Shown here one piece after another: positions 3,037-40,912 of a stretch of 64,000 nucleotides of DNA. The stretch's first letter is position 1. Each line of letters begins with the position of its first letter. Origin of the DNA: a virus (taxonomy: Duplodnaviria; Heunggongvirae; Uroviricota; Caudoviricetes); the IMG/VR virus record IMGVR_UViG_3300035182_000695, positions 26,755 to 90,754 of that record, one strand, 5' to 3'. The position numbers and the translations under genes were made by a program. A model generated the notes under the pieces. The model did not search any database. It saw only the letters and a program-made list of their open reading frames with translations, and was not told the DNA's origin.

Positions 3037-3491
3037 TGAATACTAAAGAGAAAAAATTAGCTTCCGTCTTATTAGATATGGCAAGCTCAGAATTCGGGCA
3101 TCACGGCTGCAATGATGTAGATGAGAAAATATACGAAGGCTGGTCAATTGAAGAGCGTAGGGCGTTAGTTAAAGCGTTTCACGAATATAATGGCGACCCT
3201 CAAGAGTATGACGAAAATCATTTGCATATACCTGATTTTGCGTTAATGGGATTCTTCTCTGATAAACTTGAAAAAGAAAATCAAATCGATGTTGATTTAC
3301 CGACTGATTATATTACTGTTGATAGAATGTCTTCTTATAGCTTACTGAGAGATTACTTATTGCCTGACGACAAGAATATTGTTTTAAAAAACAGTAACGG
3401 TTCTGTAAACGGAGAGATGACAGAAGCATTAAGAGAGTTAGGAATATTGAATAAAAGAAAGTACGAGCTATTAGCTAAATTCAGAAAATAA
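3036..3491 (+). CDS. hypothetical protein
   Basis: 151-aa ORF; stop/start overlap ATGA with the neighbours. Confidence 0.55.
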   Translation: MNTKEKKLASVLLDMASSEFGHHGCNDVDEKIYEGWSIEERRALVKAFHEYNGDPQEYDENHLHIPDFALMGFFSDKLEKENQIDVDLPTDYITVDRMSSYSLLRDYLLPDDKNIVLKNSNGSVNGEMTEALRELGILNKRKYELLAKFRK

Positions 3492-3847
3492 TGGAACATT
3501 TATTCATACCATACGCATTATCAGTTACCGCAAAAGAAAAAGGATTTAACGCTGAGTGTTTTGGAATTCATACCGAAAATGGAATTTGGACTGTTCCAAC
3601 TACATCACAAACGCACTTCGATAATCAATTGTGTTCTGCGCCTATTTACCAACAGATAGTTGATTGGTTAGATGATAAGCATAAATTAAGAATTATTTTT
3701 TCGAGCTGTAAAACAAGTGGCAAATACAGGTACGATATAATTCAATTTGTAGGTGACAAATGGATTGGAGATTATAATTTAATTTCTTTTTATGACAGAA
3801 CGGAAATGAAAATCAAAGCTATACAAGAAGCACTAAAACTAATATAA
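3491..3847 (+). CDS. hypothetical protein, YQQIVDWL-family paralog 1
   Basis: 118 aa; MEHLFIPYALSVTAKEKGFN...APIYQQIVDWLDDKHKL. Member of a four-copy family with 3852, 10257 and 22442. Confidence 0.6.
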   Translation: MEHLFIPYALSVTAKEKGFNAECFGIHTENGIWTVPTTSQTHFDNQLCSAPIYQQIVDWLDDKHKLRIIFSSCKTSGKYRYDIIQFVGDKWIGDYNLISFYDRTEMKIKAIQEALKLI

Positions 3848-3851
3848 TACT

Positions 3852-4184
3852 ATGATAGAATTATTTGTACCGTATGATTTAGCATTATTAGCTAAAGAAA
3901 AAGGATTTAACTATAAAGTTATTGCAACATTCAACGCAGACAAAACAATACGTTTGTTTGACTACCAAATAGAGCGAAGTTCCGCATTAATCGCTCCTAT
4001 GTTTCAACAAATCGTTGATTGGTTAAGAACCAAGCACGAACTATACATAACTCAAGAGCCACACAAAGACGGTCAGTATTCGTTCTATTGTCAAACAGAA
4101 AACGGAATGATTGAAACTTATGGAGAGTATTACGAAGCGTTAAATGAAATGTTAACTGATATTTTAAAAATAACAATTAAATAG
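3852..4184 (+). CDS. hypothetical protein, YQQIVDWL-family paralog 2
   Basis: 110 aa; MIELFVPYDLALLAKEKGFN...APMFQQIVDWLRTKHEL. Tandem to paralog 1. Confidence 0.6.
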   Translation: MIELFVPYDLALLAKEKGFNYKVIATFNADKTIRLFDYQIERSSALIAPMFQQIVDWLRTKHELYITQEPHKDGQYSFYCQTENGMIETYGEYYEALNEMLTDILKITIK

Positions 4185-4185
4185 A

Positions 4186-4380
4186 ATGGCTAAGTTTAAA
4201 AATAATAAAACGGCAGATGAATACGCAATGCAATTTCATAATTGGTGCAACAAACTAACATCTGATAAAAACCCCAACTGCTTTGTTAAACTAACAAGCT
4301 TTGCCACTATACATCAAATTAAACCAACTGGAGCATTATTAGAAATTTTTAAAAAAGAAGTTTATGAAAGACAAAACTAG
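4186..4380 (+). CDS. small hypothetical protein
   Basis: 64-aa ORF in the array. Confidence 0.4.
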   Translation: MAKFKNNKTADEYAMQFHNWCNKLTSDKNPNCFVKLTSFATIHQIKPTGALLEIFKKEVYERQN

Positions 4381-4696
4381 AATACAAGTATTTTGCGGTC
4401 AAACTATTGAAACTTTCTGCAATAGAGAGCTTCATCCTGTGAATGAAGTGAAGAGAGCTATTAATCTTACAAGTTCTTTAATGGGAGGTGGACAACTTAA
4501 AGTTTACACGAATAGTCCTAATTTCGTTATGGCTATTAAAGCTTTGGCCGATAAACACGAAATTAATATTGAATTTTTCTTAAACAATGTAAGTCAAGGA
4601 AGAGACATTGAAGCCATATTTGGAGACTTTAATTCTTCTTTTACATTATTAGAAGAAATATGCGGTTACATAACAGAAAAACCTGATAAAAATTAA
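4364..4696 (+). CDS. hypothetical protein
   Basis: 110-aa ORF. Confidence 0.5.
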   Translation: MKDKTRIQVFCGQTIETFCNRELHPVNEVKRAINLTSSLMGGGQLKVYTNSPNFVMAIKALADKHEINIEFFLNNVSQGRDIEAIFGDFNSSFTLLEEICGYITEKPDKN

Positions 4697-4706
4697 AATA
4701 AAAACT

Positions 4707-5051
4707 ATGCAAGATAATTTTTTCACAAGATTATTTTCTTCTAAAAAGAAAGTAACTGCAACAGAGCCTAAAGAAGGCGAAACTGAATTCACATTTATTT
4801 GGTTTAAAAAAATGATTAACGGCTCAACAACTCACTACACACAGCCGTTCAGAACAAAAGTGTTTGCGAAGACAAGAGACGAAGCAAAGAAAAAAGTTTC
4901 AGACTTCGCACTTCAAAGAATGACTCTGGTTGTTGTCGATGAAGACTCTTATAAAGCGCAAGAGATTTATAAAATGCGTGATGAGTTTGACAAAATGAAT
5001 AAAGAGTTTGATAGGGTTTTTAAAGAAATGGATAACGAATTTAAAAAATAA
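4707..5051 (+). CDS. hypothetical protein
   Basis: 114-aa ORF. Confidence 0.5.
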   Translation: MQDNFFTRLFSSKKKVTATEPKEGETEFTFIWFKKMINGSTTHYTQPFRTKVFAKTRDEAKKKVSDFALQRMTLVVVDEDSYKAQEIYKMRDEFDKMNKEFDRVFKEMDNEFKK

Positions 5052-5057
5052 ATAATT

Positions 5058-6086
5058 ATGCAACAAGAAAGAAAACTAGCATCGATTCAAAAAATCACAG
5101 CACTCAGAGAAATTCCAAACGCCGATAACATTGAGTGCGCAACAATACTTGGCTGGCAAGTAGTAGTACAAAAAGGAGAATTTAAAGTAGGTGATTTTGC
5201 TATCTATTGCGAGATTGATTCTTTAATTCCGGACATTGAAATATTTTCATTCTTGAAAAAGATGACGAATGATACAATGAGAATTCGCACCGTTCGTATG
5301 CGTGGACAAGTTTCACAAGGTATTTGCTTTCCATTAAGCTTTCTTAAAAACTTCACATTAACTACTGATGTTTATGAGGGTGTAGATGTAACGTCTATAC
5401 TTGGAATTATAAAATACGAAGATGAAATTCCTGCCGAGTTATTAGGTAGCGCAAAAGGATATATGCCCGCAGATATTCCTAAGTCAAGCATACTAAGAGT
5501 TCAAACAATGCAAGAGGTTCTTAATAAATATCAAGGTACTCTTTGTTATGAATCTGAAAAGCTTGACGGAGAATCAATAACTATGTATTTGAAAAATTCA
5601 GAGTTTGGCGTTTGTTCAAAAGTTGTTGACTTCTTTGAATCTGAAAAATCAATTCATTGGCAGATTGCTAGAGCTATAAACGCAGAAGAGAAACTAAAAA
5701 AATTATGCGATAGTAAATTTCGCAACTTCTCTATGCAAGGCGAAATGATTGGAGAAGGCATCAAAGGAAATAAATACAAAATAAAAGGCAGAAAAGTAAT
5801 GTTCTACAACATATTCAATATTGATGAGCATCGCTATCTTAATTTTGAAGAGTTTGAAAACACATTAAAAGCTTTAGGATTAGAAAGTGTTCCTATCATA
5901 AACAGAAACTTGCCTTTACCGACAGATATTGAAGAGCTTGTAAAGCTTTCTAACGGACGCTCGTTGATTTATGACACTAAGCGAGAGGGAGTTGTTATAA
6001 CGCCGCTAGAAGAGATAAATGATATGGTTGGTCGTGTTATTTTCAAAGTAATCAGTCCTGAATTTTTATTAAAGCACGGAGAATAA
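5058..6086 (+). CDS. ATP-dependent polynucleotide ligase, RNA-ligase-like (Rnl5/DRB0094- or NgrRnl-like architecture)
   Basis: 342 aa; nucleotidyltransferase motif I KLDGES (lysine-adenylate), downstream EGIKG (motif IV-like) and K-rich motif V region. An ~165-aa N-terminal domain precedes KxDG (ATILGWQVVVQKGEFKVGDFAIYCEIDS), as in N-terminal-domain RNA ligases. Confidence 0.5.
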   Translation: MQQERKLASIQKITALREIPNADNIECATILGWQVVVQKGEFKVGDFAIYCEIDSLIPDIEIFSFLKKMTNDTMRIRTVRMRGQVSQGICFPLSFLKNFTLTTDVYEGVDVTSILGIIKYEDEIPAELLGSAKGYMPADIPKSSILRVQTMQEVLNKYQGTLCYESEKLDGESITMYLKNSEFGVCSKVVDFFESEKSIHWQIARAINAEEKLKKLCDSKFRNFSMQGEMIGEGIKGNKYKIKGRKVMFYNIFNIDEHRYLNFEEFENTLKALGLESVPIINRNLPLPTDIEELVKLSNGRSLIYDTKREGVVITPLEEINDMVGRVIFKVISPEFLLKHGE

Positions 6087-6589
6087 TGATACAAAGAGTA
6101 GAAGATGTAAAGCGTCCTTTAAAGATTGGCGAGAGATATATAGTTCCTTGCATAATAAAAGAGTCATTCAATGGAATTACAAAAGACTTGCTAATAATAC
6201 CCGTAATAAACAAGCCGCATAGCGATAAGGAGAATGGACAAAGCGAAATTCATTACCATATTGATACTAGATTTATCGACACTACTAATAGCTACTTCAA
6301 AGATAGAGAAGATGTTTCTATGTCTTTGGATAGTTTTAATTCAAGGCCTCAAAATAAAATAGATGGCATTTTTGATAGATTTGTTTTACCTGTTTTCAAC
6401 GAGACTTTTGGCAACGCTACTCCGAGTTCATTAGTGAGAAACTCAAAACTAAAACATAAATGTATTCACAAAGGAAAGTGTCCACACAGAGGAATGGATT
6501 TGTCTCAAGTTGAGCCTGTTGATGGAGTAATTACTTGCCCTCTTCACTCACTTCAATTTGACGCAAAAACTAAACAATTAAAAAAATAA
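6086..6589 (+). CDS. Rieske-type [2Fe-2S] motif protein, paralog 1
   Basis: 167 aa; C-terminal CPHRGMDLSQVEPVDGVITCPLH = CxH-x16-CxxH Rieske signature. Translationally coupled to the ligase (TAATG). Paralog of 20676..21191. Confidence 0.5.
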   Translation: MIQRVEDVKRPLKIGERYIVPCIIKESFNGITKDLLIIPVINKPHSDKENGQSEIHYHIDTRFIDTTNSYFKDREDVSMSLDSFNSRPQNKIDGIFDRFVLPVFNETFGNATPSSLVRNSKLKHKCIHKGKCPHRGMDLSQVEPVDGVITCPLHSLQFDAKTKQLKK

Positions 6590-6591
6590 GT

Positions 6592-7857
6592 ATGTTCGAG
6601 TCAATCAAAAACAAAACAATCTTTGCGAATAAGTATAAAGCGCATCCCGAAGCGATAATCATTTCTTGCTTTTTCAATCCAACAAAATCACCATACAGAA
6701 CAAAGGCGTTCAATATTTTCAGACGAAGTATAAAGCACTTGAATCATAAAATAATTGAATGCGTTATCGGTGATGCTACTCCTGAGTTAGAAGAGAGCGC
6801 AAATGTAAAAAGAGTTTACACACAAAACTTATTGTGGCATAAAGAATCTCTTCTTAATAATGTAATTGCAGAGTTGCCTAAAAAATACAAGTATGTTTTT
6901 TGGGTTGATGCTGATGTTATTTTCACTAACTTGAATTGGATTGTTGATGGTGTGGAAGAATTAAAACATAACAATATCATACAGCCGTTCGAGCATTGTG
7001 TTCACTTAGACAGAGATGAAATAGAGCCTTCTTTTGATATGAGTAGAGTAATTTATCATAAATTTCCAAATAGATTAAATGATAAAGTTTGGAGGAGCTT
7101 CTGCGCTAACTTTGCAACTGGCTTATCTTACAAGTCTGAAAATTATAATGAACATGGACACGTTGGCTTTGCTTGGGGAGCAAGAAGAGGTGTTTTAGAT
7201 AGAGTTCCTTTATATGATAGGGCATTGATTGGCGGCGCTGACCACATTATGGCTCACGCAGCAGCAGGGCAAATTGGTTGTAGTTGTATTGCTAAATCAT
7301 TTACTGATGACATAGATGAAGTAAAAAAATGGTCTTATGATTTTTATACGGTAGTTAACAAAGAGATTAGCTATGTTAAAGGTTCGCTATATCATATTTG
7401 GCATGGCGATATTGAAAAGCGTGAATACTTAAAGCGTGTGCAAGACTTTACAGCTAAAACAAAAAACATTACTGAGAAAGATGCTAACGGCTTGTATGTT
7501 ACCGCTGACAAAGATAACGAAACATATATGAAAAATTATTTCAATCATAGAGAAGTTACGCCGAGAGAGTATGCAAGAGAAAAACGCAAAGAACAAACTG
7601 ATTCAATGAAAAAAAATATTGAGCCTCAGAAAGATGATAATTTTATGCAATCAGTAGCAATGGGATATGTTACAGACTCAACTATTCTAGGAACTGTATT
7701 AGGTGGAAATCCTTTAGGTGCGGCATTAGGAGATATGCTTAACGATTCTGACAACTCAAAACATTCTAACGATGAGCAACCTACAATCGAACACAATCAT
7801 TCTAATCACAATGATACTTTGAGTACTGGCGAAACTTATCAAAATAATTTTTCATAA
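6592..7857 (+). CDS. putative GT-A fold glycosyltransferase with a low-complexity C-terminal tail
   Basis: 421 aa; N-terminal IIISCFFNP (GT2-like Rossmann start) and DxD motif in FWVDADVIF. C-terminal ~90 aa rich in N/D/S/H. Confidence 0.4.
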   Translation: MFESIKNKTIFANKYKAHPEAIIISCFFNPTKSPYRTKAFNIFRRSIKHLNHKIIECVIGDATPELEESANVKRVYTQNLLWHKESLLNNVIAELPKKYKYVFWVDADVIFTNLNWIVDGVEELKHNNIIQPFEHCVHLDRDEIEPSFDMSRVIYHKFPNRLNDKVWRSFCANFATGLSYKSENYNEHGHVGFAWGARRGVLDRVPLYDRALIGGADHIMAHAAAGQIGCSCIAKSFTDDIDEVKKWSYDFYTVVNKEISYVKGSLYHIWHGDIEKREYLKRVQDFTAKTKNITEKDANGLYVTADKDNETYMKNYFNHREVTPREYAREKRKEQTDSMKKNIEPQKDDNFMQSVAMGYVTDSTILGTVLGGNPLGAALGDMLNDSDNSKHSNDEQPTIEHNHSNHNDTLSTGETYQNNFS

Positions 7858-7858
7858 A

Positions 7859-8482
7859 ATGGAAACTAGAAAACTAAACTTTGGTTGCGAGCCATTGAAC
7901 TTGGGTTCGTTTGATTTAAAATTTGATGAGTATTGTTTTTATATGTACTTCCCTGTCAAGTTTCCTAACTCTATGTTAAAAATTGAAAAGCGTTTAATGC
8001 CTATATTGCCTTTGATTCAAACTGTAATGCAAAATGAACCAGAAATTAAAAATAAATACATCTACATTACATTAAAAAATCAATTTCTACCTAAAGGGCT
8101 TGCGCATAACAGACCTAATTGGCACTCTGACGGATTTGGCTCTAATGATACAAACTATATTTTTTATTCAAACACTCCAACAGAGTTTTGCATCCAACAA
8201 TACAAAAATATTAGCGAAGATGATTCTGTTTCCCTGAAACAATTTGAAGGGCAAAGTAGTGAACACAGCATAGTTACTTATCCTAACAATACACTTCTTA
8301 AATTAACGCCTGAAAATATTCATCGCATCGGATTTAAAAAAGAAGATGGAGTTAGATTATTTGTAAAGATTTCAGTTTCAGATAAAGAGTATGCGCTTGT
8401 TGGCAATACACATAACTACGATTTTGATTACAACTGGTCAGATAAAATTAAAAAAAGAGAACTACATAGAAACACACCTTAA
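7859..8482 (+). CDS. hypothetical protein with a possible 2OG-Fe(II) oxygenase-like HxD...H...R triad
   Basis: 207 aa; WHSDG (HxD), then 67 aa to NIHRIG (distal His), then RLFVKIS (candidate 2OG-binding Arg). Weak, motif-level only. Confidence 0.25.
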   Translation: METRKLNFGCEPLNLGSFDLKFDEYCFYMYFPVKFPNSMLKIEKRLMPILPLIQTVMQNEPEIKNKYIYITLKNQFLPKGLAHNRPNWHSDGFGSNDTNYIFYSNTPTEFCIQQYKNISEDDSVSLKQFEGQSSEHSIVTYPNNTLLKLTPENIHRIGFKKEDGVRLFVKISVSDKEYALVGNTHNYDFDYNWSDKIKKRELHRNTP

Positions 8483-8965: not shown

Positions 8966-8979
8966 AAATTAACATTCAA

Positions 8980-9072
8980 TTGTTAATAACTATTTTCAAA
9001 ATAAACTTGTCAGTTCAAAAAATAGTTATACATTTGTGTAACGAATAAGTTAAACACTAGCAAAATCAGACA
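8980..9072 (+). promoter_or_regulatory. Conserved promoter/leader element, copy 2
   Basis: TTGTTAATAACTATTTTCAAAATAAACTTG ... TACATTTG(9028-9035) ... TGTAACGAATAAGTTAAACA; ATG at 9075. Confidence 0.55.
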
Positions 9073-10256: not shown

Positions 10257-10661
10257 ATGAGTAAGTTATATGTAACATTCGAGATTGCTAAAATTTTAAA
10301 ATCAATGCCGCAATTTGACGAGTCTTGTATTGTCTGCTACGAAGAGAGTGAGGATAATAAATTTGAATTAAGTAACTATGTTAATCAAACTGGTATTGTT
10401 ACTGGCGTTGAATGCGAGTTAGCCGCAGAAAATTGTTTTCCTGCTCCGACATACCAACAAGTTGTTGATTGGTTAATTGAAAAGCACGAAATTGAAGTTA
10501 ATGTTAAAAGCTGGAAAGGAGAAGGCGACGGAATTATAGTTTGGATTTTCTCAGTAAAGAAATTGGGAATGCCTTCAACTTATAGATTCGACACTAAATC
10601 TTTTAACAGAACCGAAGCTTGGATTAAAGCATTAACTCACGCATTAGAAAAAATAAAATAG
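10257..10661 (+). CDS. hypothetical protein, YQQIVDWL-family paralog 3
   Basis: 134 aa; ...PAPTYQQVVDWLIEKHEIEV. Confidence 0.55.
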   Translation: MSKLYVTFEIAKILKSMPQFDESCIVCYEESEDNKFELSNYVNQTGIVTGVECELAAENCFPAPTYQQVVDWLIEKHEIEVNVKSWKGEGDGIIVWIFSVKKLGMPSTYRFDTKSFNRTEAWIKALTHALEKIK

Positions 10662-14744: not shown

Positions 14745-14835
14745 AAAATTGTTGATAAGTTCAATTAAAAATAATTTTGTTGATTCAAAAAGATGTTATA
14801 TATTTGTGTAACACTTTTAAGTTAAACATTACAGT
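14745..14835 (+). promoter_or_regulatory. Conserved promoter/leader element, copy 3 (upstream box diverged)
   Basis: TTTG(14776-14779), 19 bp, TATATTTG(14799-14806), leader TGTAACACTTTTAAGTTAAACA; ATG at 14836. Confidence 0.5.
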
Positions 14836-15168
14836 ATGACAATGACAGATAAAGACAGTTTTGATGCTGTTACTAAACGAAACAATTTTAATGTAGCCGC
14901 TCAAGAAGCAATATTTGAAGAGGTTTGCGACATTCTAAAATTAGATAAAGAAGATTTAATTAATTCGAGTAAACTGCTAATTATTTCATCTTTTGGAATT
15001 ATCGGAAAAACATTATGGGAAGTTGTCAATAATAGAATAAAGCACATAGGCAGAACCGAGACAGATGAAGTTTTTGAATTCATAAAGCTAACTGCTCTTA
15101 TGCTAGCTTGGCGAAAAGTAGAGCAAGAAGGATTTGAGAAAATTGATTTAAGATTAATACTAAACTAA
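14836..15168 (+). CDS. hypothetical protein
   Basis: 110-aa ORF after the leader. Confidence 0.55.
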   Translation: MTMTDKDSFDAVTKRNNFNVAAQEAIFEEVCDILKLDKEDLINSSKLLIISSFGIIGKTLWEVVNNRIKHIGRTETDEVFEFIKLTALMLAWRKVEQEGFEKIDLRLILN

Positions 15169-15169
15169 T

Positions 15170-15463
15170 ATGAAAACAAAATTACTTACACTACTCGCAA
15201 TTGCTACTATTTTAGTTAGCTGCCGTAACGCCAAAGAAGATGCTGAAAACTACAAGGTTGGTAATCGTTATTTGAAATGGGCGCACTATGCTGTTTTAAA
15301 ATCAGATAAAGATAATCCTTTTGAAGCTGACACAGTTACTATTTTAGGAATTGAGAACGGTTATATAAGATATGTTAAATCGAGAGATATTCAATTTTCG
15401 GATATACTTAGCCATAGCTGCTCTATTAGTGATTTTGAAGACTCGACAAGAAAATTAAACTAA
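15170..15463 (+). CDS. predicted lipoprotein
   Basis: 97 aa; MKTKLLTLLAIATILVSC = signal peptide plus LVSC lipobox. Confidence 0.5.
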   Translation: MKTKLLTLLAIATILVSCRNAKEDAENYKVGNRYLKWAHYAVLKSDKDNPFEADTVTILGIENGYIRYVKSRDIQFSDILSHSCSISDFEDSTRKLN

Positions 15464-15477
15464 AAACATAAATAAAA

Positions 15478-16377
15478 ATGGTAGAATTAAATTTAGTTCA
15501 CAAAAACAAGTCAGAGGTAGAATATACTGTAAGTAATTTTCCTGACACGCAAAAGCAAATTAAAATCGAAATATTTTGCAGTCTTAATTTACACAATTCA
15601 GCATACGATAAAATCGTTAATGAAGGCGTTGTAATTAAATCACGAATGTCTTGGGATGATGTGCAATTAATTATCGCAACAGTAAAAGCTTTAAGACAAC
15701 TAAAAGCTAAAGAAATACATTTATGCGTTCCTTACTTTCTAGGCGCAAGAAGTGATAGAAAATTCGAGCAAGGTTCAAATAATTATTTAAAAGATGTTAT
15801 TTGTCCAATTATAAACTCTTTGGAGTTGGATAGTGTTTCTGTACTAGACGCTCACAGCTTTGTGTTAGAAGCTTGTTTAAAGAACTTCCAGAGTGTTGAC
15901 AATTATCAATTAGTTAGGTACGCTCAAAACGATTTACTGAAAAAGAATGTTGATGCAGGTAAATCTACTCATCTAAACGATTTTATCTTAGTTGCTCCTG
16001 ATGCAGGTGCGTCTCACAAAATATATAAGCTAGCTGAAAATATTGGATATAAAGGCGAAATTATTATATGCAGTAAAGAAAGAGGTACTGACGGCAAGTT
16101 AAGTAAAACAGTTGTTCCTGATTTTGATTACTCGAAAGACATTGTAATTGTAGATGATATTTTTGATTATGGAAATACATTTATGAATATAGTTAAAGCT
16201 GTTAGTCATAAGACAAATGAATCAGTTAGTCCAATAGGTAAAAAATATTTAATAGTAACGCACGCTATTCAAGAAAAAGGATTGGAAGCTGCTTCTGAAT
16301 ACTTTAACACTATTTACACTACTAATTCGGTAAGAGAATTTGATTTACCGAAAGTTAAAATCTTAGATATATTTTAA
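15478..16377 (+). CDS. Prs-family phosphoribosyl-pyrophosphokinase homolog (PRPP synthetase-like; candidate ADPR-PP synthetase Adps of a NARP1 pathway)
   Basis: 299 aa; IHLCVPYFLGARSDRK (Prs: ITAVIPYFGYARQDRR), LVAPDAGASHKIYKLA (Prs: VVSPDIGGVVRAR), IVDDIFDYGNTF (Prs PRPP loop VLVDDMIDTGGT). Confidence 0.6.
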   Translation: MVELNLVHKNKSEVEYTVSNFPDTQKQIKIEIFCSLNLHNSAYDKIVNEGVVIKSRMSWDDVQLIIATVKALRQLKAKEIHLCVPYFLGARSDRKFEQGSNNYLKDVICPIINSLELDSVSVLDAHSFVLEACLKNFQSVDNYQLVRYAQNDLLKKNVDAGKSTHLNDFILVAPDAGASHKIYKLAENIGYKGEIIICSKERGTDGKLSKTVVPDFDYSKDIVIVDDIFDYGNTFMNIVKAVSHKTNESVSPIGKKYLIVTHAIQEKGLEAASEYFNTIYTTNSVREFDLPKVKILDIF

Positions 16378-16401
16378 ACATAAACCATAAAAATAAACAG
16401 T

Positions 16402-16800
16402 ATGAACATATACACAAAAAGGTTGATTGACGAATGGAGAAAGCACGGAAAGCTCGTTGTGGCGATTGACTTTGATTCAACAATTTTCCCATATCACAAT
16501 TTAGAAAATCAAAAAGACATTGATAGAGCAATAGAATTAGTTCAAGTTGCTTACGCTATCGGTGCCTATATAGTAATTTTCACAGCGTCAGTACCAGAGC
16601 GTTTTGAATTCATTCAAAAATATTGCGATGAAAAGAAAATACCTATCAGTTCAATAAACAAAAATCCAATTGAGATGCCGTTCGGAAATAGTGGTAAGGT
16701 CTACGCAAATTTGTTTTTAGATGACAGAGCCGGATTTTGTCAAGCGATGGATATTTTAGAAGAAGCGATTAACGAAATGCAAAAAGAAACAAATAAATAA
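16402..16800 (+). CDS. small HAD-superfamily-like phosphatase (DxDxT motif)
   Basis: 132 aa; VVAIDFDSTIFPYHN carries HAD motif I (DxDxT). Small single-domain size as in NT5C-like/IIIB HAD enzymes. Confidence 0.35.
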   Translation: MNIYTKRLIDEWRKHGKLVVAIDFDSTIFPYHNLENQKDIDRAIELVQVAYAIGAYIVIFTASVPERFEFIQKYCDEKKIPISSINKNPIEMPFGNSGKVYANLFLDDRAGFCQAMDILEEAINEMQKETNK

Positions 16801-16826
16801 GTATAAACTAAAAACAAAAAAACAAA

Positions 16827-18434
16827 ATGGAATTTTTAGAAATCTATTGGACCGACGTGTACAAAACAGGTCACAAACCAATGCTTCCAGTTGGAAGTAC
16901 ATTGATGGCTTCAAACAACACGCCTAGAAGCGACAAGAACACAAACTGCCCGAACAACGGAGAGCTAGTTGTTTTTGGAGGTCAAATGTTAGTTCGCAAA
17001 ATGAAAAGAGATTGGGACGTTAACTTCTTTCAACGACCTATTGAAGAGATTGATAAGTTTGGAGAAGACTTAACTAAAATGTTAATGCTATCTGAGCCTT
17101 ATGACACTACTCACTTTAAAGAGTTGCATCAATTAGGCTACTTGCCAGTAAGAATTAAATCAATGCCTGAGGGTAGTGTAGTGCCTTACAAAATACCTTC
17201 GTTCACTATTGTAAACACTCAGCCTTTAAATGGCGTTATTGTTGATTGGTTAGTGAATTATTTAGAAACAATTTTATCTGCTGAATCTTGGCAAGCGCCA
17301 ACATCTGCAACATTCTCTCGCTCTCTTAGAAAATTAGGAAAAGAGTGGATTATGAAAACTGATGAGAAAAATCTTTGGTTTTTAGATTATCAGTTTCACG
17401 ATTTCTCTATGCGTGGAATGGGCGGTAAATCCGCAATTGTGAATTCGGGTTTAGGGTTCGCAACTAGCTCAAGAGGTTCTGACACGCTTCCTGTTATTCC
17501 TGCCGCTCGAATGTACTATGATGAAGTTGAGCCTTGTATTAATTCAGTTATTGCGTCAGAACACGCTATTATGTGTTCCTTGACAGGCTTCTTTATGCAG
17601 AACTCGGACGGAAATTGGGATAAAGTTGCTGATTTTGAATATGAGATGTTTGTTTACTTGTTGAAGAAATTCCCTAACGGTATTTTATCTTTAGTAATGG
17701 ACACTTGGGATTTATGGAGAGCTATTACTCAGTATTGTGTTAGAGCAAAAGATATTATTATGGCTCGAAACGGTAAATTAGTAATTAGACCTGACTCAGG
17801 AAATCCTGCCGATATTATTTGCGGAATAAACAGTAAAGATAGTTTGAGTAGTGATGTTAAGTGCTTCGCTGATTTACATCACAAAGCGTATGGAGAAGGT
17901 GTTCATAAATTCGGCGGAGATATTATCAACGAGAATCAATTTAAAGGCGTTATAGAGCTTTTGTATGAAATATTTGGAGGAACTATAAATGAACAAGGGT
18001 ATAAAGTTTTAGATTCTCATATCGGCGCTATTTATGGAGACAGTATCAATTATAAAGCTGCTGTTGAAATATTCACTAGACTTGCTAAAAAAGGATTCGC
18101 TTCAACAAATATTGTTCTTGGCATCGGCTCTTACAGTTTGCAATTCGTAACGAGAGACACACACTCGATGGCTCAGAAAGCAACTTACATTGAAGTTTGC
18201 GGAAAAGGAATAGAAATCTTTAAAGACCCTATTACTGATGGCGGAATGAAAAAATCAGCTAAAGGATTATTAATGGTTTACAAAGATGATGCAGATGGAA
18301 AAATTAAGTTGAAGGACCAATGTACTTGGGAACAAGAGCGTCAAGGATTGCTTCAAGTTATATTTGAAGACGGTAAATTTTACAACGAAACAACTCTTAC
18401 TCAAATCAGAGAGAGATTAAATTCAACACTATAA
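16827..18434 (+). CDS. Nampt-family nicotinamide phosphoribosyltransferase homolog (NadV-like; candidate Namat of a NARP1 pathway)
   Basis: 535 aa; multiple blocks alignable to NAMPT: IKSMPEGSVVPYKIPSFTIVNTQP, FHDFSMRGMGG, VIRPDSGNPADII, GIGSYSLQFVTRDT, IEIFKDPITDGGMKKSAKGLL. Confidence 0.7.
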   Translation: MEFLEIYWTDVYKTGHKPMLPVGSTLMASNNTPRSDKNTNCPNNGELVVFGGQMLVRKMKRDWDVNFFQRPIEEIDKFGEDLTKMLMLSEPYDTTHFKELHQLGYLPVRIKSMPEGSVVPYKIPSFTIVNTQPLNGVIVDWLVNYLETILSAESWQAPTSATFSRSLRKLGKEWIMKTDEKNLWFLDYQFHDFSMRGMGGKSAIVNSGLGFATSSRGSDTLPVIPAARMYYDEVEPCINSVIASEHAIMCSLTGFFMQNSDGNWDKVADFEYEMFVYLLKKFPNGILSLVMDTWDLWRAITQYCVRAKDIIMARNGKLVIRPDSGNPADIICGINSKDSLSSDVKCFADLHHKAYGEGVHKFGGDIINENQFKGVIELLYEIFGGTINEQGYKVLDSHIGAIYGDSINYKAAVEIFTRLAKKGFASTNIVLGIGSYSLQFVTRDTHSMAQKATYIEVCGKGIEIFKDPITDGGMKKSAKGLLMVYKDDADGKIKLKDQCTWEQERQGLLQVIFEDGKFYNETTLTQIRERLNSTL

Positions 18435-18443
18435 AAACAATAC

Positions 18444-18477
18444 GGTCCTTGTGTAAAAGCAAGGACTGTTTTTAAAA
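18444..18477 (+). terminator. Rho-independent terminator after the Nampt-like gene
   Basis: GGTCCTTG-TGTAAAAG-CAAGGACT stem-loop followed by GTTTTT. Confidence 0.5.
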
Positions 18478-18485
18478 AAAATAAA

Positions 18486-18962
18486 ATGAAAGTATTCGTA
18501 GTAGGCAAAACAACATTTGACAAAGTGATGCTTGAAAAAGGAATCACAAATGAAAACGTAGAGAGTAGAGAAAAAACTTTCTTCATCTCTATAAACGATA
18601 CTTGTGGCACAGATGAAGTTCCTTACTTTGAAAATAAATCGAATGTAAAAGTTTTATTTTTTGATGACATTGAAGAAGACTTAGAAGTTCCAATTCGTGG
18701 AACAGATAAATTTCGCACCGTTAAAGCGTTTAATAAAAATCAAGCCGAAGAGTTATTTGAATTTATTATATCTCATAAGAATAAAGAAACTTGCATTGTG
18801 CATTGCGCTGCCGGAATAAGTAGAAGTGGAGCGGTTGGAACTTTTATAAATGATTTTTTTAAAGGCGATTTCTTTGAGTTTAAAAAAACAAACCCTTATA
18901 TCCACCCTAACCCTACTGTTACTCGATTATTAAAAGAAGTTGCTAATGAGAAACAACCATAG
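18486..18962 (+). CDS. CX5R protein-tyrosine/dual-specificity phosphatase-fold protein
   Basis: 158 aa; IVHCAAGISRSGAVG = HCxxGxxRS(G) P-loop of the PTP/DUSP superfamily. Confidence 0.55.
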   Translation: MKVFVVGKTTFDKVMLEKGITNENVESREKTFFISINDTCGTDEVPYFENKSNVKVLFFDDIEEDLEVPIRGTDKFRTVKAFNKNQAEELFEFIISHKNKETCIVHCAAGISRSGAVGTFINDFFKGDFFEFKKTNPYIHPNPTVTRLLKEVANEKQP

Positions 18963-21191: not shown

Positions 21192-21203
21192 TTAACAATC
21201 GAG

Positions 21204-21296
21204 TGTTAATAATTATTTTCAAAATAAATTTGCGCATCTGAATTAATGTTGTACATTTGTGTAACATTTAAGTTAAACACTATTAAAATCAAGGCA
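21204..21296 (+). promoter_or_regulatory. Conserved promoter/leader element, copy 4
   Basis: TGTTAATAATTATTTTCAAAATAAATTTG(21229-32)...TACATTTG(21252-59)...TGTAACATTTAAGTTAAACA. Confidence 0.6.
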
Positions 21297-26744: not shown

Positions 26745-27036
26745 AAAAGTAATTGATAACATTGAGCATAGTTGCGAATTCGTAAACGATTTAGATTCGT
26801 ATGTAGAAGCTCTTATGCACTCTGTATCTTTACTTGATGTTCCGAGTGAGCTAGCTGCTAGCTTTCAACAGAAGTGTGATTTAATAAACTCTAACGCAAG
26901 TAAAATCAGATACATCAATATTCAATTGAGAAAAGAAAATAAAGAATTAAAGCAAAGAGAAATTGATAATGAAAAGACTTTAAAAGAAGCCAAACGAATT
27001 ATTGATAACCATAATCTAATTGCTTACTTAGCTTAA
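26731..27036 (+). CDS. hypothetical protein with coiled-coil
   Basis: 101-aa ORF. Confidence 0.45.
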   Translation: MELNKKVIDNIEHSCEFVNDLDSYVEALMHSVSLLDVPSELAASFQQKCDLINSNASKIRYINIQLRKENKELKQREIDNEKTLKEAKRIIDNHNLIAYLA

Positions 27037-28113: not shown

Positions 28114-28129
28114 ACAGATTAACAAATGG

Positions 28130-28224
28130 CTGTTAATAACTATTTTCAAAATAAATTTGCACATCTAAATTAATGTTGTATATTTGTGTAACATTTAAGT
28201 TAAACACTATTAAAATCAGACATT
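28130..28224 (+). promoter_or_regulatory. Conserved promoter/leader element, copy 5
   Basis: TGTTAATAACTATTTTCAAAATAAATTTG(28155-58)...TATATTTG(28179-86)...TGTAACATTTAAGTTAAACA; ATG at 28225. Confidence 0.6.
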
Positions 28225-33249: not shown

Positions 33250-34491
33250 ATGGAAGAGAACACTAAAGAAAACGAACACATCGAAGAAGTTGCGACCGAA
33301 GAAGCTACCGGCTCTCTTGTATCAAAAAACAAAGAGCGTGGTTTAATTATTGAAAAACTAAAAGCCGAAAAAATAACAGACGGTAAGATTCAAATGATTA
33401 CTGTCGCATTTGAGCCTATGCTTAATAAGCTAAGAGAATTAGATGAAGAGTACGCAGATATTTTAACGCAGTTAGAAACAGAAGGTCCTACAAAAGAACT
33501 TTGCGAAAAAGCTCGTTCACTTAGATTAAAAATGGTTCATTGCAGAGGTGATGTTAAAGGCGTTCATAAACTTCAAAAAGAAGAAACAATCAGATACAAT
33601 AGAGCTGTTGATGGAGTTAAAAATATTTTTGATTTCGCTGTTACTAGCAAAGAAGAAAAACTTTCATCTATTGAAAATCATTTTGAAGAGCTTGAAAAAG
33701 AAAGACTAGCTTCAATTAAAGCGGTTCGTGAAGAGAAGCTAAAGGCTTTTAATTACGATGCTAGCAGCATTGATTTATCAAAGGTTGAAGATAGTATGTT
33801 CAACTTAATTTTAAATGGCGCAGAGAAAGCATTCAACGATAAAATAGCCGCAGATAAAAAAGCAGAAGAGGAGAAAAAATTACAAGAAGAGAAAGAGAAA
33901 CAAGAACTTGCAGATAAATTAAAAAAGGAAGCCGAAGAAAAATTAGCCGCAGATAAAAATAAGAAAGAGAAAGACGAAAAGGCTGCATTGCTAAAAGTTC
34001 AACAAGAAGAAATACAAAAGCTTAATGCTGATAGATTTTTAGAATTAGTTCCTTACAATACTAATGCAGATGTTATTGATTTGGGTAATATGACAGAAGA
34101 TGCTTATTTAAAACTACTATCAGACAGTAAAATAAAGCACGATAGCGATTTAAAAGAGAAGGAGCTGGCTAAAAAAGCTCAAGATAAAAAAGACGCTGAG
34201 CTTAAAGCTCAAAAAGAAGCTAACGAAAAATTACAAAAAGAATTAAAGGAAAAGGAAGATGCAGATAAAAAGAAGAAAGAAAAGGAAGAATCGGATAAAA
34301 AAGCAAAAGCGTTAGAAGATAAAAGATTAGCAAAACAACCTGATAAAATAAAAATGATTGCTTGGATTGATTCGATACAATTACCTGATGTCATTGTTAA
34401 AGAACATGAATCTAAAGATGTTGCTACATCAGTAACTCAAAAGTTCAACGCATTCAAAAAATGGGCTAAGTTAGAAGTTGATAAAATTTAA
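33250..34491 (+). CDS. highly charged K/E-rich coiled-coil protein
   Basis: 413 aa with KEKEK/AEEKL low-complexity repeats over the central ~200 aa. Confidence 0.55.
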   Translation: MEENTKENEHIEEVATEEATGSLVSKNKERGLIIEKLKAEKITDGKIQMITVAFEPMLNKLRELDEEYADILTQLETEGPTKELCEKARSLRLKMVHCRGDVKGVHKLQKEETIRYNRAVDGVKNIFDFAVTSKEEKLSSIENHFEELEKERLASIKAVREEKLKAFNYDASSIDLSKVEDSMFNLILNGAEKAFNDKIAADKKAEEEKKLQEEKEKQELADKLKKEAEEKLAADKNKKEKDEKAALLKVQQEEIQKLNADRFLELVPYNTNADVIDLGNMTEDAYLKLLSDSKIKHDSDLKEKELAKKAQDKKDAELKAQKEANEKLQKELKEKEDADKKKKEKEESDKKAKALEDKRLAKQPDKIKMIAWIDSIQLPDVIVKEHESKDVATSVTQKFNAFKKWAKLEVDKI

Positions 34492-34559: not shown

Positions 34560-35990
34560 ATTTTCAAAAAAAATATTTAAAAAAACGTCTTCAAGCAAGC
34601 AGGAACTCTCGTCATTTTTGGCTTTTGTTATCGCAAACCTGCTTGCGAGAAGGCTATTTATTCAATGTTAGTAAGCTCAAAGCATAGACTCGAACTCAAC
34701 AATAAGCAGAGAACACTAGCGTTTAAACACGCTGGAATAGCTAGACACGCTTGGAATTGGGGAGTTAAAATGTGTCAAGAAGCTTCTGAAAAAAGAGAGA
34801 AATTGCCGTCAGCAATGACGCTTCATAAAAAATTAGTTGCGGAAGTTAAAGTTGAAAACCCTTGGTATTATGAAGTTTCAAAGTGCGCTCCGCAAGAGTC
34901 TTTGAGAAATTTAGACGAGGCATGGCGTAATTATTTTCACAACTTAAAAAATGGAGCAATTCAGAAAAAGAAAAAATCATATATTTCAGAACGAAAACGA
35001 AAAGGATTGCCGATTAATACCAAAAAACTTTTCGACTTAGGTAAGCCAAATTTTAAGAAAAAAGGGATGCGTGATTCTTTTTGTTTAAACTCTCATGCAA
35101 TAAAAATATCAGGAAATAAAATCAAAGTTCCTATATTCGGTTGGCTTAAAATTAGTGAAAAATATAATGATAGTTTTATTATAAAAGGTGTGGTCATGTC
35201 AAGAACGGCTAACGATTGGTTTGTAAGTTTTCATAGAGAAGTTGATAATTTAAAAATTGAAGGAATTGAATCAAAGCCTAGTATCGGCGTTGATTTAGGA
35301 ATAAAAACTTTAGCGATTTTAAGTGATGGTGTTGAATTTAAAAATGTAAATGCTTTCGGGATAAATAAAAGAAAATTAAAATTAGCGCAAAGAAAACAAT
35401 CTAAAAATTTCAATAAAGACAGTAAAACACAGAGTAATAACTATAAAAAAGCAATTAAAAAAGTAGCGAAAATTTATCAAAGAATAGCAAATATTCGCAA
35501 AGATGCAACTCATAAATTAACAACATATCTTGCTAAGAACCACAGCCTGATAGGGATTGAAGATTTAAACGTGAGTGGAATGATGAAAAACAGAAAGCTA
35601 TCAAGCGCAATCGCTGATGGCGGATTTTACGAATTTCGCAGACAATTAGAGTATAAAACTCTTTGGTACGGCTCGAAATTAGTAGTAATCGACAGATTTT
35701 TTCCATCATCAAAAACTTGTTGTTGCTGCGGAAACATCAAAGAAAAATTAAAATTGTCAGAGCGAATATACGACTGCGAAGCTTGCCAATTGAGCTTAGA
35801 CAGAGATTTAAACGCTGCGATAAACATACAAAATTATGCGGTGAGTTACACCGTGAATGTCTGTGGAGAGTTACAAAAACAGTCGATTTCGACTGAAACT
35901 CAATGAAGCAGAAAGTAAACAGCAAAAATAAAACTTGCAAAAGTTTAGTATTGTATAAGTTTTGCGTAACGGCGATTTAAAAGAAAAGAA
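34560..35990 (+). mobile_element. IS200/IS605-family TnpB-only insertion element (IS1341-like)
   Basis: Intact tnpB flanked by a left hairpin GCAAGCAGG...CCTGCTTGC (34597-34652) and right-end hairpins plus the ACGGCGATT motif (35958-35966) shared with the truncated copy at 169-177. Boundaries approximate. Confidence 0.5.
34665..35906 (+). CDS. tnpB: TnpB (IS605 OrfB; RuvC-like nuclease with C-terminal zinc finger)
   Basis: 413 aa; N-terminal MLVSSKHRLELNNKQRTLAFKHAGIARHAWNWG (TnpB N-terminal consensus), GIEDLNVSGM (RuvC-II region), CCCCGNIKEKLKLSERIYDCEACQLSLDRDLNAAINI (zinc finger plus RuvC-III). Confidence 0.75.
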   Translation: MLVSSKHRLELNNKQRTLAFKHAGIARHAWNWGVKMCQEASEKREKLPSAMTLHKKLVAEVKVENPWYYEVSKCAPQESLRNLDEAWRNYFHNLKNGAIQKKKKSYISERKRKGLPINTKKLFDLGKPNFKKKGMRDSFCLNSHAIKISGNKIKVPIFGWLKISEKYNDSFIIKGVVMSRTANDWFVSFHREVDNLKIEGIESKPSIGVDLGIKTLAILSDGVEFKNVNAFGINKRKLKLAQRKQSKNFNKDSKTQSNNYKKAIKKVAKIYQRIANIRKDATHKLTTYLAKNHSLIGIEDLNVSGMMKNRKLSSAIADGGFYEFRRQLEYKTLWYGSKLVVIDRFFPSSKTCCCCGNIKEKLKLSERIYDCEACQLSLDRDLNAAINIQNYAVSYTVNVCGELQKQSISTETQ

Positions 35991-39737: not shown

Positions 39738-40007
39738 ATGTTTTTAAACGAGCAACTAGAATTCTTTAAAGAGAATATTAAAACGAAACTGATTATGGAG
39801 TGTTGTTCTTGCAACAATACTTATGTAGAACATTTTGATATTAAAGAAATTGAAGACTACGAAAAAACAAAACAAGAGTTTGCTAAAAAAGCATACGAGA
39901 AAGGCTGGCGATATTCTGTATCAACTATTTTTGCCGGAAGAAGGAATAAAGCCATAAGATGTAAATCGTGTCATACTAACAGAAATAATAAAAATTATTT
40001 TGACTAA
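39738..40007 (+). CDS. Cys-rich small protein
   Basis: 89 aa; CCSCNN...CKSCH. Confidence 0.4.
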   Translation: MFLNEQLEFFKENIKTKLIMECCSCNNTYVEHFDIKEIEDYEKTKQEFAKKAYEKGWRYSVSTIFAGRRNKAIRCKSCHTNRNNKNYFD

Positions 40008-40479
40008 AAAGATTCAACTTTCGCAAGGCTTTGAAGCGATTGTGGACGAAGAGGACTTCAATCGTATTAGTGATTTCAAATGGCATATAAACAGAACGAA
40101 AAGCGGATTAATTTACGCTAGGCGAACTATTGTATATCCAAGAGTTAACGGCGTTCAGTCTAAAACAAAACAATACTTACACAGATTTATTTTAGATAAT
40201 TTTGATAAAGATGTGAAAATTATTTTCAGAGATAAAAACCCTCTTAATTGCAGTAAATCTAATTTAATAATCGGGAACGAATCTTGTAAATCTTATAACA
40301 TAACTAAAAGAAAAAAAGGAAAAGTTAAAGGCGTAAGAAAAAAACACAATAAATTTCACGCTAGAATTTTTGACAAAGACAAGTGTATTTTTATAGGCTC
40401 ATTCGACACCGAGTCTCAAGCCAAAGAAGCTTATGATAAATTAAATTCTGAAATGATTAAAAAAAATACTATTTCTTAA
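40000..40479 (+). CDS. HNH_3-like / AP2-domain homing-endonuclease-like protein (HNH core possibly degenerate)
   Basis: 159 aa; YLHRFIL and IIFRDKNPLNCSKSNL resemble the HNH_3 core (vHRlv...vdHiDgnklNN..NL) but with H->R. C-terminal KFHARIFDKDKCIFIGSFDTESQAKEAYDKLN is an AP2 DNA-binding domain signature. Confidence 0.45.
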   Translation: MTKKIQLSQGFEAIVDEEDFNRISDFKWHINRTKSGLIYARRTIVYPRVNGVQSKTKQYLHRFILDNFDKDVKIIFRDKNPLNCSKSNLIIGNESCKSYNITKRKKGKVKGVRKKHNKFHARIFDKDKCIFIGSFDTESQAKEAYDKLNSEMIKKNTIS

Positions 40480-40912
40480 TCCAAAGATAAGTCATTGCTC
40501 CAGTAGCAGCTCCTCCAACAGCAATCGCAACCCATTTATAAACTATCTGCTTTCGTGTTTGTCTGCGGGCATCTTTTAATTTATTATTATACCCAACGAT
40601 TGCATAATCATAAATTTTGAAAGCATCTTTATTGTTTTTAATAACCATCGAAAAATTAGCACTTACTTTTTTCTCAGCTTGCAAAGCAGAGTCGCAATAA
40701 TCTAACTGTACTTCACAAATATTTCGCAAAGTATCACACGTTTGTAATTTGTAATATGTCTTCAATAAAAATTTACTCTGATTTACACTAAAGCAAATCA
40801 TTGTGTCTTTTTTATCATTTAATGTTACTGTTTGTGAAAACGCTGTTAAAGTCAGAAACGACACCGCTAACATTAGAAGCGTCAATTTGTTTTTGTTTTT
40901 TCTCGGATACAT
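40469..40912 (-). CDS. secreted/membrane protein (N-terminal signal peptide, C-terminal TM)
   Basis: 147 aa; last gene of the minus-strand module; overlaps 40815..41153 in another frame. Confidence 0.45.
   Translation of the reverse strand: MYPRKNKNKLTLLMLAVSFLTLTAFSQTVTLNDKKDTMICFSVNQSKFLLKTYYKLQTCDTLRNICEVQLDYCDSALQAEKKVSANFSMVIKNNKDAFKIYDYAIVGYNNKLKDARRQTRKQIVYKWVAIAVGGAATGAMTYLWIKK

Follow-up and report, generated by a model that had tools for sequence, protein, structure and literature searches.

The stretch of viral DNA considered here (IMG/VR record IMGVR_UViG_3300035182_000695, positions 26,755 to 90,754; 64,000 nt of the source genome, hereafter the window) carries three adjacent genes which encode a Prs-like protein, a small phosphatase and a Nampt-like protein (Table 1). 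An initial annotation had proposed that the Prs-like and Nampt-like genes form NARP1, a phage NAD+ reconstitution pathway composed of Adps, an ADP-ribose (ADPR) pyrophosphokinase, and Namat, a nicotinamide ADPR transferase, which was validated in Bas63, SPbetaL1, FADO, ICP1 and DyoEdafos (Osterman et al., bioRxiv 10.1101/2024.02.11.579819). It had preferred NARP1 to a salvage through phosphoribosyl pyrophosphate (PRPP) and nicotinamide mononucleotide (NMN), and had left the middle gene uninterpreted. Those tests of the initial annotation that could be run in silico all favour NARP1. The module is a three-enzyme variant and not plain NARP1: with a probability of about 0.8, we consider it a NAD+ reconstitution module of a Bacteroidota-type phage, in which a HAD phosphatase is placed between the two core genes. 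The open reading frames (ORFs) of the trio were confirmed on the + strand, those of the Prs-like and Nampt-like proteins at the positions first assigned to them, and their Pfam, NCBIfam and PHROG homologies are real. Identical proteins were found on a metagenomic contig of 146,216 bp, so that the window represents less than half of the genome. When the operon was compared by megablast with 50,697 phage records, nothing matched, which indicates that the phage is uncultured.

Table 1. Positions of the NAD+ reconstitution module, of its transcription unit and of other features in the window
Feature	Position	Strand	Length	Basis or remark
Promoter-like element (third among five copies of a conserved intergenic repeat)	14765-14816	+		repeat family D2; -33 TTTG / -7 TAnnTTTG motif at 14776-14806
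Small ORF, first gene after the promoter-like element	14836-15168	+	110 aa	no family match
Small ORF, lipoprotein-like signal peptide MKTKLLTLLAIATILVSC	15170-15463	+	97 aa	same transcription unit as Adps, HAD and Namat genes
Predicted Adps, Prs-like ADP-ribose pyrophosphokinase (ADPR + ATP -> ADPR-PP + AMP)	15478-16377	+	299 aa	homology, clade, residues
Predicted capless (C0) HAD-superfamily phosphatase, BT0820-like family	16402-16800	+	132 aa	motifs, fold, linkage
Predicted Namat, nicotinamide ADP-ribose transferase (ADPR-PP + nicotinamide -> NAD+ + pyrophosphate)	16827-18434	+	535 aa	structure matches, clamp
Intrinsic-terminator-like hairpin, 11-bp stem, 6-nt loop, then U-run	18442-18475	+		7 nt past the Namat stop codon
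Cys-based dual-specificity/PTP-like phosphatase	18486-18962	+	158 aa	HCAAGISRSG; Pfam DSPc 6.6e-6 (under cut-off), phrog_5614
RNA ligase	5058-6086	+		PHA02142 OB-fold and RNA_ligase domain
ORF adjoining the TnpB-like gene	33250-34491		413 aa	no Pfam match
TnpB/Cas12f-like protein	34665-35906	+	413 aa	Pfam Cas12f1-like_TNB 1.5e-22, OrfB_IS605 3e-20, HTH_OrfB_IS605 8e-9
Small paralogous genes sharing 48-77 nt repeats	3491-4184 and 10441-10517			repeat families D3, D4, D6

The organization of the trio as an operon is supported by short gaps (24 nt, then 26 nt), a common promoter-like element and a strong terminator. From the stop codon of the Adps gene to the start of the Namat gene there are 450 nt, with one gene in between on the same strand. 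The upstream element corresponds to what had been called promoter copy 3, and is indeed the third of five conserved intergenic copies of 50-100 nt, the others lying at 186-285, 8969-9068, 21192-21291 and 28119-28218. The copies carry the Bacteroidota-type -33/-7 consensus TTTG ... TAnnTTTG, followed by TGTAAC. This motif (TTTG-N19-TAnnTTTG) is enriched in the window, with 13 occurrences for 4.7 expected and 0/100 shuffles reaching 13; sigma-70-type sites are not enriched there (17 for 19.4 expected). The element would act as a promoter. The set of five copies points to a Bacteroidota host and probably marks early or middle transcription units. At the other end, the terminator proposed initially was recovered as a stem at 18442-18468 followed by UGUUUUU, with a folding energy of -16.7 kcal/mol (z = -6.06) which none of 200 shuffles equalled. 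The three genes of the operon are co-directional as described; their count has to be revised, since two small ORFs lie between the promoter-like element and the Prs-like gene, so that the transcription unit probably holds five genes, not three.

The Prs-like protein is assigned by sequence comparison to Adps, and not to PRPP synthetases. It behaves as a distant Prs homolog: its Pfam Pribosyltran matches stay under threshold, its best NCBIfam match (TIGR01251) reaches 75.7 bits for a cut-off of 113, and Prs equivalog models score it at 31-69 bits for cut-offs of 296-536. E. coli Prs obtains 423-533 bits on the curated Prs models (423 with TIGR01251); with TIGR01251 the validated Adps of FADO and of the ICP1 type obtain 96.5 and 98 bits, both below the cut-off. 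Being under threshold on all Prs models, as the validated Adps are, the window protein behaves like an Adps. PHROG 619 was dropped as evidence for Adps, E. coli Prs scoring higher on it (193 bits) than the window protein (165 bits). In the neighbour-joining trees, Prs were represented by seven genuine enzymes of six phyla, Parabacteroides being one of the sources, and Adps by four validated-type phage proteins (FADO, ICP1-type, Felix-O1-type and Klebsiella jumbo-phage), to which the window family was added. A split with Prs on one side, and Adps together with the window family on the other, recurred in 200/200 bootstraps. In 99/100 the window family nested among the validated-type Adps, most often with the ICP1 type, instead of standing as a third lineage. 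The phylogeny that the initial annotation had suggested as a check thus places the protein on the Adps side. Similarly, a hidden Markov model built from the four Adps gives 149 bits on the window protein, compared with 62 bits for a Prs model, and identity amounts to 26-32% with validated Adps and 18-23% with Prs. The minimum (18%) is obtained with Bacteroidota Prs, which argues against the recent capture of a host gene.

Residues of the pocket, whose examination had also been advised, agree with Adps at the adenine-stacking and donor-lid positions. The ICP1 Adps structures published in 2026 designate Lys185, Arg87, His121, Asp161, Asp212, Asp213 and Asp216 as catalytic or acceptor residues (PMC13586617). 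When the window protein is mapped on ICP1 Adps, the catalytic and acceptor residues are all kept (F21, R91, H126, D175, K200, D226, D227 and D230); they are common to Prs too, and indicate competence, not specificity. In ICP1 Adps, Phe92 stacks on the adenine of ADPR, Phe221 forms the donor lid and the RF loop is remodelled (PMC13586617). The window protein has Phe96 and Phe235 at the two positions, as does the rest of its family, where Prs have V/D/A/H/S and L/I, respectively. Its RF loop is remodelled as in Adps (ARSDRKF-EQGSNNYLK vs ARQDRRVRSARVPITAK in Prs). The loss of the C-terminal alpha11-alpha12 module has been described as the "defining evolutionary signature" of Adps (PMC13586617). 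This module is absent here: the protein stops at ...VKILDIF, and all seven Prs run about 25 residues further.

The Nampt-like protein is likewise predicted to be a Namat, not a Nampt. Its family matches are PF04095 (4e-29), NF006629 (432 bits) and phrog_448 (1.7e-160). Among all PDB sequences its top matches are 9W5X/9W5W (7e-100, 338 bits), which the data-availability statement of the corresponding paper confirms to be the Namat of SPbetaL1, with 9KE8 as a further phage entry. The Nampt of Xcc and human obtain 160-170 bits (about 5e-46), and KVP40 NadV, the NARP2 enzyme, 151 bits with 29% identity; identity to validated Namat is 38-43%. The identities of 2,007 phage matches have a bimodal spread, NARP1-type phages being at 31-44% and T4-like/KVP40-like phages at 25-28%. 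The initial proposal that this protein be compared with both clades thus ends on the Namat side, and the adenine clamp points the same way. Namat are recognized by the SCH signature GS-X-phi-X-phi-X-phi-TRD (PMC12774641), and the window clamp GSYSLQFVTRD (residues 434-444) fits it, with Tyr436 and Phe440 at the adenine-stacking positions and S, Q and V as phi. The equivalent segments are GSFTYQYNTRD in SPbetaL1 Namat (whose sequence was rebuilt from the PDB alignment), GGALLQKVDRD in Xcc Nampt and GGGLLQQLDRD in KVP40 NadV, and the window clamp is unlike the PRPP-type Nampt loop GSGGxLLQ. The 20/20 ligand-contact positions of the Namat-NAD+ structure, together with the catalytic His246, map to conserved or conservatively replaced residues, and the Nampt-like catalytic core is intact (D10, Y12, F193, R196, D219, the phospho-histidine H246, R321, D323 and R443). 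As a side observation, KVP40 possesses, apart from nadV, a second, short PF04095-related ORF (KVP40.0259; locus L008, 4159-5052) whose clamp-like motif GSFAFSNISRD resembles the Namat type, not the Nampt type.

The initial annotation had reported that no NMN adenylyltransferase (NMNAT) is visible in the window. This holds for its six frames: a motif scan and maximum-sensitivity phmmer searches with KVP40 NatV and the KVP40 NadR-like protein as probes found none (all E > 1). None was found either in 9.3 kb and 4.6 kb of flanking sequence, taken from contigs which are 99.97-100% identical to the window over the overlaps; window and flanks (14 kb) together amount to about 78 kb, the source contig having 146 kb. 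In 80 viral loci of the same Adps clade, no NMNAT is present within 7 kb. Other NAD+ pathways were set aside. NARP2, composed in KVP40 of the Nampt NadV and the Nmnat NatV, shares with the window the restoration of NAD+ by a Nampt-superfamily transferase; it proceeds from PRPP through NMN and needs an NMNAT, unlike the window, where the clamp is of Namat type, the resemblance to NadV is low and NMNAT was not found over the sequence searched. For NARP3 (PnuC and a NadR-like protein), the NadR-like probe had no match in the window, PnuC not being separately probed. For NARP1-AP, in which a Macro-domain protein, Adpp, stands between Adps and Namat, the Macro protein of Vibrio phage phi 3 had no match in the window, and Pfam shows no Macro domain there.

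The middle gene is the new part of the locus. Its product is matched by phrog_1238 (3.6e-23) and, at a weak level, by HAD phosphatases of the BT0820 family, the score of 25.9 on NCBIfam NF046079 being far under the cut-off of 165. Conservation is complete or almost complete at the HAD catalytic motifs I (DxDxT), II (S/T), III (K) and IV (DD), and the Rossmannoid HAD fold is predicted with confidence. Homologs were found on 309 viral contigs in a scan of IMG/VR, and linkage was counted within 7 kb in the best 80 loci. A Namat-like gene, always co-oriented, is present in 70 of the 80 (88%), an Adps-like gene in 61 and both in 60; the exact order Adps>HAD>Namat is found in 45/80 (56%), across contigs with proteins just 40-55% identical. 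Wherever the scan recovered the SCH region of a HAD-linked transferase, this region carried the Namat-type clamp, also where no Adps gene was near. Nine of the 80 loci have no NARP gene within this distance. Linkage to NARP1 genes extends over crAss-like, Bastille-like, Tenacibaculum and uncultured phages, and by these counts the HAD protein is to be classified as a conserved accessory of NARP1. Cultured phages have homologs as well (194 records), among them crAss-like phages of the gut, Bacillus phages of the Bastille type and Lak megaphages; the annotations are as varied as "phosphoheptose isomerase", "hydrolase", "phosphatase" and "polynucleotide kinase". The first of these labels (RefSeq/PHROG 1238; e.g. 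NC_023501.1, 7310-7663, and NC_031034.1, 23471-23824) is unsupported by the HAD fold and motifs.

Some individual loci deserve mention. Bacteroides phage DAC15 (L101; MT074136.1, 4464-7205) carries the order Namat>HAD>Adps in DAC15_103, DAC15_102 and DAC15_101, all three annotated as hypothetical, and crAss-like phages appear from such sequences to encode unannotated NARP1 with HAD. In Tenacibaculum phage PTm1 (L006, 5584-7479) HAD is directly upstream of the Namat-like gene. In this phage as in the Bacillus phage SalinJah region (L088), HAD adjoins a Namat-type gene and an Adps-like gene is absent within about 6-7 kb. Another locus (L098; IMGVR_UViG_3300003316_000244, 3931-7895) encodes a NatV-like NMNAT, a NadV-type Nampt (GSGGGLLEEGLTRD; 42% identity with KVP40 NadV), a homolog of the window HAD (also 42% identity) and a second HAD paralog; it resembles a NARP2-type module that has this phosphatase. 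Two candidate relatives were rejected. A HAD-family gene located near KVP40 nadV (KVP40.0262) has no detectable relatedness to the window HAD. AfhF, a phage pentose-1,5-bisphosphate phosphatase with a matching fold, removes the C5 phosphate and is hence non-specific as an analogy for ADPR-1''-phosphate (ADPR-1''P).

To situate the phosphatase among NARP1 accessories we examined its correspondence with the Macro-domain Adpp. Two insert genes of NARP1 operons were described in the literature searched. Adpp converts ADPR-1''P, made by aRES, to ADPR, and NARP1-AP accounts for about 15% of NARP1 operons (bioRxiv 10.64898/2026.01.28.702374). RyDEP, a glycosidase, converts cyclic ADPR signals to ADPR (bioRxiv 10.64898/2026.05.28.727677). 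Neither paper mentions a HAD enzyme, and a HAD-type phosphatase as a NARP1 component was not described in the literature searched. The layout Adps-Macro-Namat was found in Vibrio phage phi 3, whose Macro protein served as probe in 67 de-duplicated NARP1 loci chosen by similarity of Adps to the window family. They are distributed as follows: neither accessory in 27 loci, HAD alone in 21, Macro alone, in the same middle slot, in 18, and both in one, for about six expected. This negative association (odds ratio 0.07, Fisher p = 0.003) is computed without regard to the phylogenetic relatedness of the contigs. Strict mutual exclusivity was rejected, both genes being present together in 5/80 loci when these are selected on HAD. 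Larger NARP1 operons with Macro and HAD both between Adps and Namat are seen on the IMG/VR contigs L024, L048, L058 and L075, for instance Adps>Macro>HAD>Namat at L024 (IMGVR_UViG_3300020159_001827). No alignment, sequence similarity or fold similarity between HAD and Macro was detectable. Since the two mostly alternate in one slot, an analogous supporting role is favoured; the loci with both, L098 and the tighter link to Namat call for caution before the HAD substrate is equated with ADPR-1''P.

Homologies, clade placement, specificity residues, HAD motifs and conserved gene order are observations; the scheme that follows is deduced from sequence as regards the activities of the enzymes, their action against defences and, most of all, the substrate of HAD. 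Host NADase defences would cleave NAD+ to ADPR and nicotinamide. Adps would pyrophosphorylate ADPR at its 1'' hydroxyl with the beta,gamma-pyrophosphate taken from ATP, giving ADPR pyrophosphate (ADPR-PP), and Namat would condense the latter with nicotinamide to NAD+ directly, without NMN intermediate or NMNAT. The HAD phosphatase most likely would aid the pathway by hydrolysis of a phosphomonoester. The favoured candidate is a phosphorylated ADPR derivative out of reach of plain NARP1, which the enzyme may turn into ADPR usable by Adps, as Adpp does in NARP1-AP; it may otherwise act on 2'-phospho-ADPR or NADP+, or clear pyrophosphate or other products. Each of these substrates is tentative: a compound outside those named comes foremost, well short of an even chance, ADPR-1''P is possible, 2'-phospho-ADPR or NADP+ somewhat more doubtful, and pyrophosphate unlikely.

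Several observations weigh against this interpretation of the locus. For the core enzymes, the rival is a NARP2-type salvage, in which a PRPP maker and an NMN maker would be completed by an NMNAT encoded outside the window, or by host NadD/NadR. The two proteins are members of the Prs and Nampt superfamilies, and the window family branches divergently among Adps, in view of its low identity to those that were validated. The PP loop, FDYGNT, is unlike CDGAAS of ICP1 (C215-S220) and partly resembles IDTGGT of Prs, of which it keeps the G-x-T; this loop varies among other Adps (CDGGRT, SSYGGT, CDGGAT). In the second enzyme, Lys37 of the SCL loop, which aligns with Arg40, is non-discriminating: the loop of Namat admits Arg, Lys or Tyr at the stacking position (PMC12774641), and KVP40 NadV aligns a Lys there too. 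Moreover, Namat enzymes keep a PRPP-to-NMN activity in vitro (PMC12774641), and the extent of the search makes a distant NMNAT possible. We nevertheless regard such a salvage as very improbable. All curated Prs models failed on the first protein, which is least similar to the Prs of Bacteroidota, nests within validated Adps, lacks alpha11-alpha12 and has both F96 and F235; the second has the Namat clamp and matches NadV poorly; NMNAT is absent from the searched part of the contig and from the 80 related loci; and Osterman et al. saw no phage with both pathways (bioRxiv 10.1101/2024.02.11.579819).

Other difficulties concern the phosphatase. The closest structure is BT0820 (PDB 2OBB), for whose family no substrate was found in the literature searched; HAD is tied more tightly to Namat than to Adps; L098 associates it with a NadV-type Nampt and a NatV-like NMNAT; and the five loci where it accompanies Macro argue against a simple redundancy with Adpp. 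These facts bear directly on the idea that HAD is a non-homologous equivalent of Adpp, acting on ADPR-1''P produced by an aRES-type NAD+ phosphorylase, in other words a HAD version of NARP1-AP. The shared operon slot and the rarity of loci with both accessories speak for it, as do the conserved catalytic motifs, an open capless active site suited to a bulky nucleotide substrate and the precedent of accessory "funnel" enzymes in NARP1 operons; the order Adps>Macro>HAD>Namat, the membership in the pair of Nampt and NatV at L098, the lack of similarity to Macro domains and the missing substrate information for BT0820 detract from it, and we retain it as a tentative possibility. Equally tentative is an action on another phosphate, either the 2'-phosphate of 2'-phospho-ADPR or NADP+, or a pyrophosphatase or product-clearing activity that would pull the pyrophosphate-releasing transferase step forward. 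This proposal is pure inference; an overlapping function would more easily account for the negative association with Macro, and L098 is a single case. Finally, HAD could be an unrelated passenger, such as a general nucleotidase or a polynucleotide 3'-phosphatase engaged in nucleotide-pool or RNA-repair functions; the inconsistent annotations of its homologs (phosphoheptose isomerase, hydrolase, polynucleotide kinase), the nine loci free of NARP genes and the RNA ligase encoded in the window would fit. Such a passenger is unlikely, given the frequency of a co-oriented Namat-like neighbour, the recurrence of the exact three-gene order and the diversity of the phages concerned.

The preferred interpretation, NARP1 with an intervening HAD phosphatase, can be compared with the known systems. 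As in validated NARP1, an Adps-clade and a Namat-clade gene share one co-directional operon with their specificity residues kept and no NMNAT over the sequence searched; unlike it, both core proteins are divergent, a HAD gene separates them, and the window comes from an uncultured phage of 146 kb with Bacteroidota-type promoters. NARP1-AP, as in Vibrio phage Gary, likewise comprises three genes in one operon, the middle one of which encodes a phosphatase, and within one Adps clade the two accessories are largely mutually exclusive, occasionally occurring together. The window phosphatase is predicted to have a capless HAD fold, with Mg2+-dependent aspartyl-phosphate chemistry, and not a Macro fold. 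With the RyDEP operon of DyoEdafos it has in common the insertion of an accessory enzyme thought to feed ADPR into NARP1; RyDEP has a RyR domain and acts as a glycosidase on cyclic ADPR signals, unlike the window protein, a predicted phosphomonoesterase.

NARP1 is established and present in about 4% of sequenced phages, so that another instance would be routine, and the core described here adds one more, divergent, member to a known system. It extends NARP1 to Bacteroidota-infecting phages, where the DAC15 cluster had stayed unannotated. The HAD gene is conserved: at least 309 viral contigs encode it, as do the 194 cultured-phage records, where it is usually mis-annotated or "hypothetical". 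Macro Adpp and RyDEP each revealed host defence chemistry beyond plain NARP1, and a third accessory, largely exclusive with Adpp and sometimes found together with it, gives a direct experimental handle and could point to further chemistry of this kind or to a rate-limiting step in NAD+ restoration. It is conceivable, though doubtful, that HAD constitutes a distinct and widespread extension of NARP1 acting on a phosphorylated NAD+ breakdown product other than ADPR-1''P, e.g. 2'-phospho-ADPR from NADP+ cleavage or the product of an undescribed defence chemistry. The four-gene operons with Macro and HAD would then belong to phages which counter two different non-canonical NAD(P)+-depleting defences, and a bacterial defence activity still uncharacterised would be predicted.

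Turning to the neighbours of the module, the gene just past its terminator encodes a Cys-based phosphatase, the second phosphatase of the locus. This gene and the two small upstream ORFs were considered as conserved partners and ruled out (0/80 loci); homologs of the two ORFs near HAD or NARP1 genes were found in none of the 80 viral loci. Elsewhere the window contains an RNA ligase gene, small paralogous genes which share short repeats, and a TnpB/Cas12f-like gene adjoined by an ORF of the same length. Another OrfB_IS605/TNB gene is situated outside the window, some 1 kb upstream from its left end (L182:8413-9447). Near 40 kb (40000-40500) transcription flips from the + to the - strand and the GC skew changes sign, a switch which probably marks the boundary of two divergently or convergently arranged gene modules.

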